Assembly (NCBI GenBank): GCA_963703215.1
Contig: OY969800.1
Coordinates: 582,007 to 646,006 of the forward strand
Length of the DNA stretch: 64,000 nucleotides
Direction: 5' to 3'
Origin: an uncultured Bacteroidota bacterium
GTDB lineage: Bacteria > Bacteroidota > Ignavibacteria > Kryptoniales > JAKASW01
Below the pieces are notes generated by a model, which saw only the letters and a program-made list of their open reading frames with translations, had not been told where the DNA came from and did no database searches. A program made the translations under genes and the position numbers. Within the stretch, counting starts at the first letter, position 1. The number at the start of each line of letters is the position of its first letter. Shown piece after piece: positions 55,276 to 60,497 of the stretch.

Positions 55276-56368
55276 TTAATTATTTTCGAGAACGAGCTTG
55301 AGCGAGATACGATTCGTCGGAGGAAGCGCATCGGCATAGGAAAACTTCGCAAACGCATAATCTATTTCAAGCTTCGGAAGATGGATTCCCGCTCCGACAG
55401 TGAACTGCTTCACCTCGTTGTATCCTGCTCGGATTGCGAGAACATTTTTGTAGCTTACCTCCATTCCGGCACGAGCATCCGCACTCAATGGACCAAGATG
55501 CACCATGGAAGCGGACCGCATGTTGTCGATGTTGAAAAGCAAATCTACGGCGGGAGTGATGCCGAATGAGCCCAGCAACAGATCATATGCGGCACCGGTC
55601 GCAAGCGTGGGCGTCATGACCTCTGTCGTTCCTGTCGTCCACGCCACGACTGTAGTCGTAGCGTTTTGCAGATTGGCACCAAGACTCAGATTCTTGAACG
55701 GATTGTAAAGCGCTCCGAACGTCGAATCCGATACCCGTACCCGAAGTCGTTCCGATACTCCGGCGAATCAGTTTAACGCTGCCGCCGTATGCAAAATTGT
55801 CCGTGGATTGCTTCGCGTAGCTTCCAACCAAAGCAAAATCCGTCTCACCAAAAAAAGTGACCATGTTAGGATCAAGCCTGCTCAGGCTATCGGGGTTCGC
55901 GAATTCCGGTGGAATCGGATTGCCGTTCAAATCAAGCCCCGCCGACTGCGTGTTCGGAACGCCGCTGACACTCAGAACTACGGCACTCAATCCTACAGTT
56001 TCATCTTTTGAAAGCTTGATTGCACCTGCAACGTAATTGTAGCTGACGATGTCCCCGTACCGTTGATCGTGCATCAAAATTATTTCTGGAAATTCCACTT
56101 TTGAAAGGCCAGCTGGATTCCAGTAACCTGAAGTCACATCGTTTGCGGCGGCGGTGTATGCGCTCCCCATTCCGAGGGCGCGTCCTCCAACACCGATCGC
56201 CAGGAAATCGTTCGCATACTTCGCAAGCGTCAAGCCTTCTCCCTGCGCTTTCACCTCAGCACAAGAGAAAAGCGAAACGAACAAAACTAATAAAGAAAAA
56301 TAAAAGATCAAGAATAACGAGCGGACATATTCAAATCTTCCGCCCCTGGTCTCTTTCGTCGATGTCAT
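55276..56368 (-). pseudogene. PorV/PorQ-family outer-membrane beta-barrel protein, reading frame broken once near 55717
   Basis: The N-terminal part has GGRALGMGSAYTAAANDVTSGYWNPAGL. Deleting the C in gttCGGa joins it to ...GIGFDVGALYNPFKNLSLGANLQN... Confidence 0.65.
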
Positions 56369-56430
56369 TCTCCTTGCTCCATGATTAGATGGTCGCAATT
56401 CTTCATCCTTGAATCTTCGTTTTTAGTTTT

Positions 56431-58113
56431 TCATTCAATAGGTTCGGCGCCGAATTCGTCCTTCAGATATTTTATTAGCGGGTCATCCGGCTTGGAATCC
56501 ACCGGGTGTTCATCGGCGACTATCGTAAAATCGATCGCTACTCGCATCCCCAAAACTTTCTGAATCGTGTCCTGCACATAATTTTTGTAAGGTTTGGTCA
56601 TCCCGACAACCACCTCGTTGGGAGCGCCGAGCATCAGCCAACCATTTCTGATCCCGATGGGCTTCAAGTTTATCATCTGCGACCAGACACCGATTCTTTC
56701 TTTTCTGACAACCTGGAGCAACTCTTCCCATCTTACACTAATCTCCTGGAAAGATGCTTGAGTGCTCGGGTGAGCGGGCGGCTTGCTTTCCAGAACCTTT
56801 GGCTCGGACGCGGACGGCGGTTTATCGCGCCTTATCTGGTTGTCGACAAGAGGGTTCTTCGGCTTGAATTGCGAGAAAGATGCTCCGGATTCTTTTGCTG
56901 TCGCGCCATTGCCAAAACCAGTTTGAACCGTCTGCCCTGGAGGGGCTTTAATTCCAAATGAACTAACCTGGATTACGTTTTTTTTTAACTCTTCGACCTG
57001 TTGAAGAAGCTCACTCAGTTTGACGGACCGCTCCATGTTGACAAGCTGAAGCAGCGTCATCTCCAATTTTATCCGCGGCTGTGAGACATACTTTATCTGC
57101 TGCATCGCTTCGCTCGTCGCCTTCAGGAATCTCAGCAGATCAAGCCTGTCAAATTTCGAGGACGAATCCAAATAGCGTTTCTTGTAATCCTCGGACGCCT
57201 CAATCAAATCCCCTTTACCTGTCGTCGCTGCGATTAATAAGTTGCGCAGATGTTCTGCCAATCCTTCAAGAAAATCCACGGGATCGTATCCACGCGAAAC
57301 GATTTGTGCCGCAAGCTCCACGGCTCCTTTCGAATCGTTTTTCTCGATCAAGTCGGTCAGTATAAAAAAAAGTTCAGCATCGACGAGGCTAAGCGCGTTC
57401 ACGACGACTTCATGTTTGACATCATTCCCGCAAAACGCGGCCACCTGGTCGAATATACTCAGCGCATCGCGCATCGACCCGTCGCCCTTTTTCGCGATCG
57501 TCACAAACGATTCCTCATCGACAGAAATTTTTTCCTCCTTCGCGATGAAGCGGAGCCGCTCGATGATTTTCTCTGTTTCAATCCTCTTGAAATCGAATCG
57601 CTGGCACCGCGTGAGAATCGTCGGGATAACTTTGTGAGGTTCAGTAGTCGCCAAAACAAAGATCGCATAAGACGGAGGCTCCTCAAGAGTCTTCAACAAT
57701 GCGTTGAACGCTTCCTTGGTGAGCATATGTACTTCGTCGATGATGTAAATCTTGTGCTTCAATCGCGAAGGTGAATAGCGAACCGATTCCCGAAGATCTC
57801 TTATTTCATCGATACCGCGGTTCGATGCTCCATCAATCTCGATGACGTCGAGACTTCTCCCCTCGGTAATTTCTTTGCACACATCGCATTCGTTGCACGG
57901 TTCACCGTCATTGACGTTCGGACAGTTTATCGCTTTTGCAAAAATCCGGGCAGTAGTAGTCTTTCCGACGCCGCTCGGTCCGCTGAACAGATAGGCGTGC
58001 GCTATGCGATTGCGGACTATAGCATTCTTCATTGTGACCGTAACATGTTCCTGTGCAGTCACTTCGTCGAACCGCATCGGCCGCCACTTGCGGGCGGTAA
58101 CCAAATAACTCAT
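56431..58113 (-). CDS. dnaX: DNA polymerase III subunits tau/gamma
   Basis: 560 aa with Walker A (GPSGVGKTT) and DEVHML. The ATG overlaps the lon TGA (ATGA). There is an internal A9 run at codons 376-379. Confidence 0.93.
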   Translation of the reverse strand: MSYLVTARKWRPMRFDEVTAQEHVTVTMKNAIVRNRIAHAYLFSGPSGVGKTTTARIFAKAINCPNVNDGEPCNECDVCKEITEGRSLDVIEIDGASNRGIDEIRDLRESVRYSPSRLKHKIYIIDEVHMLTKEAFNALLKTLEEPPSYAIFVLATTEPHKVIPTILTRCQRFDFKRIETEKIIERLRFIAKEEKISVDEESFVTIAKKGDGSMRDALSIFDQVAAFCGNDVKHEVVVNALSLVDAELFFILTDLIEKNDSKGAVELAAQIVSRGYDPVDFLEGLAEHLRNLLIAATTGKGDLIEASEDYKKRYLDSSSKFDRLDLLRFLKATSEAMQQIKYVSQPRIKLEMTLLQLVNMERSVKLSELLQQVEELKKNVIQVSSFGIKAPPGQTVQTGFGNGATAKESGASFSQFKPKNPLVDNQIRRDKPPSASEPKVLESKPPAHPSTQASFQEISVRWEELLQVVRKERIGVWSQMINLKPIGIRNGWLMLGAPNEVVVGMTKPYKNYVQDTIQKVLGMRVAIDFTIVADEHPVDSKPDDPLIKYLKDEFGAEPIE

Positions 58114-60497
58114 TTCCTATTCTTACCATTGACGAAGACGTGCTTCAACGCATCCTCGATTCTCTCAACCGGAACTATTGCAATTCCTTCCTTCACTTTG
58201 TCAGGTACCTCAACCAAATCCTTCGTGTTCTCTTTCGGAATCAGGACTTTCTTAATGCCATATCTTTTTGCTGCAAGTAATTTCTCCGTCAAACCGCCAA
58301 TAGCCAAAACCTCACCATTAAGATTGATTTCTCCAGTCATTGCCACATCGGTTCGAACCTGTTTTTTCCCTGCAGCAGAGATTAGTGCGACCGCCATCGT
58401 AAGTCCGGCGGATGGACCATCTTTTGGGGTTGCACCTTCGGGGACGTGAATGTGAAGTTCTTTTCCTTTCTGAAAATTTTTTGGAATCCGGAGCTTCGAA
58501 GCGTTAGCTCTAACGTATGTCAGAGCCGCGCGCGCCGATTCCTGCATTACATTCCCAAGCCTGCCTGTTAATTGCACTCTGTCCGGTCCTTCTATTAAAA
58601 TCGCTTCGACGTTCAGAATATCGCCACCTCCACTTGTCCACGCAAGTCCAACGGCAACACCTATCCGACTTTTCTTGTCGATCAGTTTCGAATGGAATTT
58701 CGGCACACCCAAGAATTCTTCGACCTTCTTCTCGTCGATAAGGATAGGGACTATTTTCTTCGACTTTCCATTTTTCTGTATGACAATTTCCTTCGCGATC
58801 TTTCTGCAAATTGCGGCGATAGAGCGCTCGAGATTTCTTACGCCGGCTTCCCACGTATATTCGCGGATGATTTTTACCAATGCAGGGTCTTCCCATTTCA
58901 CGTACTTTTCCTCAATGCCGTGAGCTTTTAGCTGTTTTGGAATAATGTGTCGCTTCGCAATCTCGATCTTATCGTAATCGAGGTATCCCGGAAGCTCGAT
59001 GACCTCCATCCTGTCTTCAAGCGGCTCCGGAATATTCTCGCGGACGTTCGCAGTTGTAATAAACAGAACCTTTGACAGATCATAATCCACTTCAAGATAA
59101 TGATCCTGGAAAGAATGGTTTTGTTCCGGGTCAAGAACCTCGAGCAAAGCAGCGGAAGGATCACCATGGAAATCGTTTGCCATCTTATCGACTTCATCTA
59201 AAAGCATGACCGGATTGACGACAGCGGCTTTTTTCATGGCCTGCAGGATTCTTCCAGGCATCGATCCAACATAAGTTCTGCGATGTCCACGAATCTCAGC
59301 CTCGTCTCTAATCCCACCGAGCGAAAGACGAACGAATTTTCTCCCGATGGCGCGCGCTATCGACTTGGCGAGGGATGTTTTACCAACTCCCGGCGGTCCG
59401 ACAAAACAGAGTATCTGCGATCGCATTTCTTTCACAAGATTCAGAACCGCGATCTGTTCGACGATTCTCTCCTTCGGCTTTTCAAGCCCATAATGATCCT
59501 CATCGAGTATCTTCCTGACATGCTCTATGTCCATGTCGTCGCTCGTTTTGTCATGCCATGGCACATCCACCAGCCAGTCGAGATAATTTCTTATGACCGT
59601 CGCCTCAGGAGAAAACGGCTGCGTTCTCTTCAGCTTATCGAGCTCATCAACCGCTTTTAACTTTGCCAATTCCGGCATCTTCGCCTTTTCAATTTTATCC
59701 TTCAAGAAAGCGATCTCGCCGGTTGGGCTCTCCTCACCGAGCTCGTCCTGCATTATCCTTACCTGTTCCTGGAGGTAATATTTCCGCTGGTTCTTTTGTA
59801 TACTGTCCTGGACCTTGTCGTCGATCTCCTGCTCGATCTTCAGGATACTTATCTCCTCCATCATTATCCTGATCATATCTTCATATTGATTCCGCAGGCT
59901 TTTCAAGCCGAACAAATCCATCTTCTCCGGAACCGGAAGATCCAAATTAGCGAGAATGTAGTAAAACTTACGATCTGGCTGGTCCATGTTCTCGAACGAC
60001 ATCAGTGTTTCGGGTGGAAGATCGCGGCTATTCCTCACATAGTCTCTAAACAATTGAGAGGCATGTTTTACATAAGCTTCAAGCTCAAGTTCTTTCTTTG
60101 ACGGCTGAATGTTGAGAGAATATTCGGCGTGAAGAATCCGATTTTCATCGTAGAACTTTTTTACAAAACCCTGCGCAACTCCATCGACAAGAACCTTGAG
60201 AAGCCCATTGGGAAGTTTGAGCACTTGCAATATTCTTGCGACCGTACCCACACGGTAAAGCTCATCCCGTGTTGGATCCTCCAAAGCACTGTCCTTCTGT
60301 GCAATTAACAAAATAAACTTCTGATTCTTCGACGCATACTCGACTGCCTCGACGGATTGCTCCCTTCCGACAAGAATCGGAAACAGCATGTATGGAAGCA
60401 CCAATGAATCTCTAAGAGGAAGAACAGGAAGTCGTGACGGGATGTCCTCGACTTTTTTTATTTCTTCAACCTGATCCATTTCTTCGTTTTCGTTCAA
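58110..60497 (-). CDS. lon: ATP-dependent Lon protease
   Basis: 795 aa with GPPGVGKTS and the catalytic-Ser motif PKDGPSAG. The TTG start is preceded by GGAG. Confidence 0.95.
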   Translation of the reverse strand: MNENEEMDQVEEIKKVEDIPSRLPVLPLRDSLVLPYMLFPILVGREQSVEAVEYASKNQKFILLIAQKDSALEDPTRDELYRVGTVARILQVLKLPNGLLKVLVDGVAQGFVKKFYDENRILHAEYSLNIQPSKKELELEAYVKHASQLFRDYVRNSRDLPPETLMSFENMDQPDRKFYYILANLDLPVPEKMDLFGLKSLRNQYEDMIRIMMEEISILKIEQEIDDKVQDSIQKNQRKYYLQEQVRIMQDELGEESPTGEIAFLKDKIEKAKMPELAKLKAVDELDKLKRTQPFSPEATVIRNYLDWLVDVPWHDKTSDDMDIEHVRKILDEDHYGLEKPKERIVEQIAVLNLVKEMRSQILCFVGPPGVGKTSLAKSIARAIGRKFVRLSLGGIRDEAEIRGHRRTYVGSMPGRILQAMKKAAVVNPVMLLDEVDKMANDFHGDPSAALLEVLDPEQNHSFQDHYLEVDYDLSKVLFITTANVRENIPEPLEDRMEVIELPGYLDYDKIEIAKRHIIPKQLKAHGIEEKYVKWEDPALVKIIREYTWEAGVRNLERSIAAICRKIAKEIVIQKNGKSKKIVPILIDEKKVEEFLGVPKFHSKLIDKKSRIGVAVGLAWTSGGGDILNVEAILIEGPDRVQLTGRLGNVMQESARAALTYVRANASKLRIPKNFQKGKELHIHVPEGATPKDGPSAGLTMAVALISAAGKKQVRTDVAMTGEINLNGEVLAIGGLTEKLLAAKRYGIKKVLIPKENTKDLVEVPDKVKEGIAIVPVERIEDALKHVFVNGKNRK

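Follow-up and report, generated by a model that had tools for sequence, protein, structure and literature searches.

The short gamma form of DnaX, the gamma/tau subunit of DNA polymerase III, is obtained alongside full-length tau by different routes in different bacteria. In Escherichia coli, gamma is produced by -1 ribosomal frameshifting on the heptamer A_AAA_AAG, together with a Shine-Dalgarno (SD)-like element and a 3' stem-loop (PMC3711429; PMC5009743). In Thermus thermophilus, tau is encoded by a single open reading frame (ORF), and gamma arises by transcriptional slippage on a run of nine A residues (A9) in dnaX (Larsen et al., 2000, via PMC5009743 and PMC1088944). Stops are found in both non-zero frames of the Thermus gene and the product ratio is 1:1 (PMC5009743; PMC1088944). 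In this study, an A9 run was analyzed in the dnaX gene of a Kryptoniota-like genome (GCA_963703215.1, contig OY969800.1). The window, which is the whole stretch of DNA analyzed, comprises 64,000 nt (positions 582,007-646,006 of the contig, forward strand). The A9 run in this gene is very probably a selected tau/gamma recoding site, as judged from its sequence context and its conservation among relatives.

Two further systems are relevant for comparison. Antonov et al. (2013) described a "novel" two-ORF dnaX whose tau depends on a shift; 12 of the genes carry poly-A, nine of them A10, and the shift was attributed to transcriptional realignment (PMC3711429). The nine A10 genes shown in Fig. S3 of that study belong to Chlorobi, Bacteroidetes, and Verrucomicrobia, namely to Chlorobium, Prosthecochloris, Pelodictyon, Flavobacterium, Cytophaga, Capnocytophaga, and Coraliomargarita (PMC3711429). 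Gamma-like forms of Caulobacter crescentus are generated by ClpXP proteolysis of tau (bioRxiv 10.1101/2022.11.10.516041).

The dnaX gene and its A9 run

The ORF at 56431-58113 is unambiguously identified as DnaX, because its family scores exceed the curated cut-offs and its domains I-III share homology with the solved structure of gamma. Matches were obtained with the NCBIfam models PRK05563 (527.7 bits, cut-off 400; aligned up to residue 531) and TIGR02397 (dnaX N-terminal region; 457.5 bits, cut-off 250). Pfam domains include the AAA+ module (PF13177, residues 21-178), the lid (PF22608, residues 183-229), and domain III (PF12169, residues 234-372), which ends at residue 372. Residues 1-358 of the crystallized E. 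coli gamma core (1jr3_A, 373 aa) align to residues 1-359 of the window protein (E=6.5e-74). The C-terminal domain of tau (about residues 453-543) gives a weak, sub-threshold match to the Pfam family DnaX_C (PF20964, E=0.029); the same family is recorded for several relatives at 47% identity. The ATG of dnaX overlaps the stop codon of the upstream lon gene (58110-60497) within the tetranucleotide ATGA (58110-58113). The features of the locus are as follows:

56431-58113, minus strand: dnaX ORF encoding tau, 560 codons plus stop
56998-58113, minus strand: clamp-loader core, domains I-III, codons 1-372, common to tau and the predicted gamma (Pfam and 1jr3_A alignment)
56977-56988, minus strand: slip-site codons L376 K377 K378 N379, TTA AAA AAA AAC (sequence)
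56978-56986, minus strand: A9 homopolymer (T9 on the plus strand), candidate slippage-prone run (sequence)
56973-56975, minus strand: TAA in the +1 frame (one A fewer), one codon into the frame; product ending ELKKT, 379 aa
56963-56965, minus strand: TAG in the -1 frame (one extra A or a -1 ribosomal shift), five codons into the frame; product ending ELKKKRNPG, 383 aa
56758-56976, minus strand: variable linker found only in tau, codons 380-452, unconserved in sequence and length (homologue alignment)
56485-56757, minus strand: conserved C-terminal domain found only in tau, codons 453-543, absent from gamma (weak DnaX_C match)

An initial annotation of this DNA had placed an A9 run in codons 376-379, about two-thirds of the way into the 560-codon ORF and after the clamp-loader core, and had predicted the two truncated ends that a change of frame in either direction would give. 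All of this was confirmed. The run is located at 67% of the ORF, about four codons past the end of domain III, and either short product would therefore be a minimal domain I-III gamma. A -1 shift or one extra A leads into a frame that ends in LKKKRNPG followed by TAG, and the frame with one A fewer ends in LKKT followed by TAA. The likeness to the gamma/tau length ratio of E. coli claimed in that annotation also holds (0.68 here vs. 0.67 in E. coli). Tau itself is continuous in the zero frame across the run as a single 560-codon ORF. The heptamers A_AAA_AAA and A_AAA_AAC are present at the slip site in zero-frame phase; A_AAA_AAG is absent. The organism is represented by a second, independent assembly (L089, GCA_052915765.1), in which the A9 and the whole dnaX gene are identical. 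Over 4.7 kb the window and this assembly are 99.96% identical; the differences are a single substitution and a 1-nt indel, in the gene that follows dnaX.

The A9 run is the longest homopolymer in the window. Base composition alone would make an A9 somewhere in 64 kb unsurprising: in dinucleotide shuffles of the window (n=100), the mean number of A9/T9 runs was 4.97, and at least one run was present in 95 of them. The window holds one such run, an approximately fivefold depletion relative to the shuffles, and KK dipeptides in its long ORFs are encoded by AAAAAA in 8 of 68 cases, though AAA makes up 55% of the Lys codons. The genome therefore avoids long A/T runs, and the single A9/T9 exception is at the tau/gamma boundary of dnaX. 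Avoidance of such runs has been described for many bacteria (Baranov et al., 2005; PMC1088944). It is the position and the conservation of the A9 run that go beyond chance, not its mere presence.

The closest described counterpart is the dnaX gene of Thermus, with which the window gene shares an A9 on the sense strand, a one-ORF tau, near stops in both non-zero frames, no need for a stimulatory structure, and a short product (here predicted) without the C-terminal part of tau. The two differ in the position of the run relative to the ORF and to domain III; in addition, the flanking sequences are unrelated and the phyla are different. Because of the unrelated flanks and the different phylum, the window slip site probably originated independently of the Thermus site.

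The two-ORF genes of Antonov et al. (2013) have poly-A at the same kind of place and belong to the same superphylum, the Fibrobacteres-Chlorobi-Bacteroidetes (FCB) group. In those genes a zero-frame stop is located just after the run and tau needs a slip, whereas no zero-frame stop follows the A-run of the window gene, in which tau is the zero-frame product and gamma the one that would depend on slippage. A single-ORF gene of this kind is out of reach of the method of Antonov et al. (2013), because that method seeks genomic frameshifts, and truncating cases were explicitly excluded from the survey of Baranov et al. (2005; PMC1088944). No description of the single-ORF form outside Thermus was found in the literature searched, the coverage of which was incomplete.

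With E. coli dnaX the window gene has in common a gamma (here predicted) that is tau truncated after the clamp-loader core, an in-phase A-rich heptamer, and an early -1-frame stop. It differs in the absence of AAG, of a conserved stem-loop, and of an SD-like element at about 10 nt, in the length of the run (nine as against seven), and in the closure of the +1 frame as well. The gamma-like forms of Caulobacter are also derived from a single tau ORF; there, however, the route is post-translational proteolysis and no slippery sequence is involved.

Conservation of the run and of the out-of-frame stops

A protein search returned 52 homologues of the window DnaX (61-100% identity), three of which are named Candidatus Kryptoniota by their sources. 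The motif L/I-K-K-N or L-K-K-K is present in 52 of 52, exactly where conservation yields to the hypervariable linker. Nucleotide sequences for 15 of these homologues, together with the window, gave a set of 16 Kryptoniota-level dnaX genes. A pattern search of metagenome DNA (QPRIKxEMT) gave eight loci, four of which encode dnaX.

All 16 genes have a run at the slip site, A9 in 14 and A10 in two, and in all of them tau is in frame as one ORF. Lys codons at the slip site are exclusively AAA (36 AAA, 0 AAG), compared with 294 AAA and 265 AAG in the remainder of these genes; the E. coli-type signal A_AAA_AAG is accordingly found in 0 of 16 genes. Asn is encoded by AAC in 12 cases and by AAT in none (background 164 AAC vs. 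151 AAT). An A-ending Leu or Ile codon (TTA, ATA, CTA) precedes the run in 14 of 14 genes of the K-K-N type (background 10.7% for Leu). In the two genes with CTG as the Leu codon, Asn is changed to Lys (CTG AAA AAA AAA CTG), by which A9 is restored; the length of the run is conserved and its codon phase is not. Codons flanking the slip site vary freely at synonymous positions. The exclusive use of AAA for Lys, the A-ending Leu/Ile codon, and the compensating codon solutions show that the A-run is under purifying selection at the nucleotide level, beyond the constraint on the protein.

The frames on either side are closed early. The -1 frame ends within nine codons in 16 of 16 genes (nominal background P=0.41) and within four codons in 13 of 16 (nominal P=0.24); the median background distance to a -1-frame stop is 13 codons. 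The +1 frame is closed immediately in 11 of the 16 genes, against a background frequency of about 0.06. These stops are built from different codons in different genes (GTA-A, TTG-A, CTG-A, AAC-TGA), and the linker downstream cannot be aligned. Conservation of the A-run and of nearby out-of-frame stops among relatives was one of the tests proposed in the initial annotation, and its outcome supports the prediction.

A wider survey was carried out with a whole-protein genome scan, which was saturated by matches to the generic peptide YIIDEVHM and gave 80 dnaX loci from many phyla, with no Kryptoniota genomes among them. In 37 of the 80 loci, a run of A9-A11 was detected no further than about 40-60 codons from where domain III ends. 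Runs of at least nine A number 38 in the 23.7 kb surrounding that boundary, vs. 12 A/T runs in the other 502.6 kb, which corresponds to a 67-fold enrichment. The most frequent length is A10 (n=27, including the Pedobacter loci L038, L048, and L055), followed by A9 (n=8) and A11 (n=3). Positive loci are labeled as Bacteroidales, Flavobacteriales, Chitinophagales, Pedobacter and other Sphingobacteriales, Cytophagales, Ignavibacteria, Chlorobium, Fibrobacteria, and one Desulfobacteraceae; no A9-A11 run was found at the domain III end in the Firmicutes loci of the survey. Among single-ORF loci (n=32), the -1 frame is closed within four codons in 32 of 32 (background 0.30) and the +1 frame within five codons in 27 of 32 (background 0.31). 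Such frame closure is missing in six of the seven loci that have A7-A8 only, and the lengths of the constrained sites therefore start at nine.

In five loci of the survey (L020, L031, L033, L072 from Chlorobium, and L080) the zero frame is closed 0-5 codons after A10. The C-terminal part of tau (>200 codons) is found in the -1 frame in the first four of these and in the +1 frame in L080. These five loci are of the type described by Antonov et al. (2013); those from metagenome-assembled genomes (MAGs) could alternatively represent homopolymer assembly errors.

Several other dnaX loci deserve separate mention. In Pontibacter rugosus JCM 31319 (L057), an A7 (GGATC A7 GCTAAGG) represents the sole short-run locus with both frames closed, after 1-2 codons; this may be a degenerate or a ribosomal-frameshift version of the site. 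In a Trichlorobacter sp. MAG (L012), an A10 (GGCAG A10 GCATGA) is located at position 1819, about 137 codons past the end of domain III, and the -1 frame closes after one codon. It may be a slippage site that lies deeper in the linker, as do the sites of E. coli or Thermus. Two Bacteroidales MAGs (L018, CAMZFW010000113.1; L070, ONQD01000012.1) lack an A-run; in their dnaX genes domain III is directly followed by an in-frame TAG, some 15 codons ahead of the position that aligns with window codon 376, and another 201-254 codons of tau continue in the same frame. The two share the context CCA TAG ATT GCN AGG TCG CCN CAG GCG G, with a possible CGCC-NCA-GGCG hairpin. Stop-codon readthrough or a recoded TAG could serve as the tau/gamma route there, a possibility that we have not seen described.

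Proposed transcriptional slippage and its alternatives

Based on these comparisons, transcriptional slippage of the T. thermophilus dnaX type is fairly likely to be the main route to gamma in this organism. RNA polymerase transcribing the T9 template would allow the all-A:T hybrid to realign, resulting in mixed mRNAs with A8, A9, A10, and other lengths. Messages with A9 (or 9 +/- 3) would be translated into full-length tau of 560 aa, plus or minus one Lys at the start of the linker. Those with one extra A would be terminated at TAG after LKKKRNPG (383 aa), and those with one A fewer at TAA after LKKT (379 aa). Both short products would represent gamma, with domains I-III only and without the linker and the C-terminal domain of tau. 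The sequence anatomy, the domain boundary, and the conservation and nucleotide-level constraint of the run and the out-of-frame stops are shown by the data; the occurrence of slippage, its level (transcription rather than translation), and the tau:gamma ratio are inferred. The label "Thermus-type" used in the initial annotation fits this locus better than "E. coli-type," given the one-ORF tau, a run of at least nine, the closure of both non-zero frames, and the lack of a conserved 3' stem-loop or a properly spaced SD-like element.

Stimulatory elements were sought on both sides of the run. No conserved GGAGG-like element was found about 10 nt 5' of the heptamer in an alignment of 14 genes; GAGG occurs in only two of them, directly abutting the run. 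A downstream stem-loop was rejected as a stimulator: the mean z-score of the downstream 50 nt is -0.26, no gene falls below -1.6, and the predicted structures differ between genes. A 6-bp hairpin upstream of the run (CUUCUU/GAAGAG), ending 2 nt before it, is predicted in the window and in some relatives. It was also rejected, as it shows no covariation and one double change only, and RNAalifold predicts no structure; pairing is possible in 76.2% of cells vs. 75.7% in shuffles. The upstream hairpin is most simply a by-product of the Leu-Leu...Glu-Glu codons. Penno and co-workers reportedly described, in 2015, a type of transcriptional slippage that is stimulated by a nascent-RNA hairpin immediately 5' of the slippery run. 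No conserved hairpin of this kind is present 5' of the dnaX run. The T9 on the plus strand was considered as an antisense intrinsic terminator and rejected, with no hairpin abutting the T-run and no plus-strand gene reading into it.

Programmed -1 ribosomal frameshifting on A_AAA_AAA (TTA AAA AAA) or A_AAA_AAC would lead to the same TAG and a 383-aa gamma from a homogeneous mRNA. A correctly phased X_XXY_YYZ heptamer is present in the window and in all relatives, including those of the CTG AAA AAA AAA type. The -1-frame stop is the most consistently conserved feature of the site (16 of 16 genes and 32 of 32 survey loci), an A-ending Leu codon is required by the heptamer as well, and the mechanism is the one used by E. 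coli dnaX. Slippage is nevertheless favored over frameshifting for several reasons. Seven A's would be enough for a heptamer, yet the constrained sites are 9-11 nt long and never 7-8 (with L057, A7, as a possible exception), and the A7-A8 loci mostly lack frame closure. The +1-frame stop is enriched though it is useless for a -1 shift, and its closure is relevant only if insertions and deletions of A both occur. None of the 16 Kryptoniota-level genes has a run that ends in AAG, and neither a 3' stem-loop nor an SD-like element at about 10 nt is conserved. Finally, orthologues require shifts in both directions, which is the criterion of Antonov et al. (2013) for a transcriptional mechanism (PMC3711429). 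We consider frameshifting as the source of gamma unlikely.

Several points weigh against slippage or weaken the evidence for it. Any run of at least nine A contains an in-phase A_AAA_AAA heptamer, and the sequence by itself therefore leaves room for a ribosomal -1 shift. The +1-frame stop is not universal, being 119 codons away in L094 and 16 codons away in L099. The 16 relatives are not independent, so that the probabilities given above are nominal and overstate significance. The critical run length differs among species (Baranov et al., 2005; PMC1088944). The predicted gamma sequences of the window and three relatives, in both frames, had no exact match in a collection of 15 billion proteins, a result that is uninformative.

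It is also conceivable that no recoding takes place, and that K-K-N/K is kept for the sake of the protein, where the final helix of domain III ends, with the A-run and the stops as tolerated by-products. The dnaX genes of other lineages encode basic and acidic helix residues at this position (E-K-R, E-R-K, L-K-R-S) without an A-run, which points to a preference for charge at the protein level. This explanation seems quite unlikely, however, as it accounts neither for the AAA/AAG ratio of 36/0, the final A of the Leu/Ile codon, and the N-to-K/TTA-to-CTG compensation, nor for early stops that are conserved in both non-coding frames across a linker that is not, nor for the 67-fold enrichment of A>=9 runs at the site, in a genome that avoids AAAAAA for KK elsewhere (8/68).

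Ribosome sliding on poly-A (Koutmou et al., 2015), in which the frame is lost in either direction on AAA Lys codons and translation runs into out-of-frame stops, would account for the exclusive use of AAA, for the missing stimulators, and for the early stops in both alternative frames. Sliding in E. coli systems has been observed to give products truncated at such stops (PMC4363877). When measured in the PURE system, however, the effect was robust with A11 but weak with A9-A10 (PMC4363877), whereas the Kryptoniota-level runs are A9 in 14 of 16 genes and those of the wider survey are mostly A10, and sliding is in our view very unlikely to be the explanation.

A homopolymer that is hypervariable at the DNA level (phase variation), or one whose length was assembled incorrectly, is scarcely credible: homopolymers do mutate by replication slippage, and the 1-nt indel between the two assemblies of the organism, in the next gene, indicates that indel differences or errors occur, but the A9 is identical in both assemblies, tau is in frame in all 16 genes, and on/off switching is implausible because dnaX is essential.

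Gene neighborhood and implications

The gene downstream of dnaX (55277-56368, minus strand) encodes a 363-aa protein with no Pfam match; faint UPF0164 matches were found in several relatives. It is intact in the second assembly (L089); in the window it is represented by two ORFs (55583-56398 and 55276-55647). The split results from one extra T at about 55719-55720 of the window (GACGTTCGGA vs. GACG-TCGGA), which reflects either an indel introduced during assembly or a genuine frameshift. The gene order lon - dnaX - UPF0164-like - DUF1684 is conserved across the Kryptoniota-level relatives (L089-L100). In L094, a toxin-antitoxin-like pair (DUF433 and PIN-like/DUF5615) is inserted between lon and dnaX. 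The only tRNA gene in the window is tRNA-Gln.

The reason why gamma is made alongside tau has been open for 30 years, and the case for its importance rests chiefly on the independent evolution of routes to it (bioRxiv 10.1101/2022.11.10.516041). The locus described here would add a candidate phylum, represented by a Kryptoniota-like genome, to Thermus-type dnaX slippage. Our data show a single-ORF poly-A form of dnaX that is conserved, under clear selection at the nucleotide level, and is widespread across much of the FCB group, for which only the two-ORF variant had been reported in the literature searched, which was incomplete. A broader reading can be put forward tentatively, with somewhat more doubt than confidence: poly-A at the domain III/linker boundary of dnaX may be an ancient and near-universal feature of the FCB group (here Kryptoniota, Ignavibacteriota, Bacteroidota, Chlorobi, and Fibrobacterota), with its length tuned to 9-11 nt and with lineages toggling freely between tau-in-frame and gamma-in-frame versions. 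RNA-polymerase slippage might then be the commonest bacterial route to gamma. If this FCB-wide reading is true, thousands of single-ORF dnaX annotations lack a second product.

For genomes with an A-run, current dnaX annotations miss the second, predicted product, and MAG dnaX genes that appear "frameshifted" at an A10 should not be written off as pseudogenes or as errors of assembly. The range of 9-11 nt within which run length is conserved further provides a natural data set on the tolerance of RNA polymerase to such runs.

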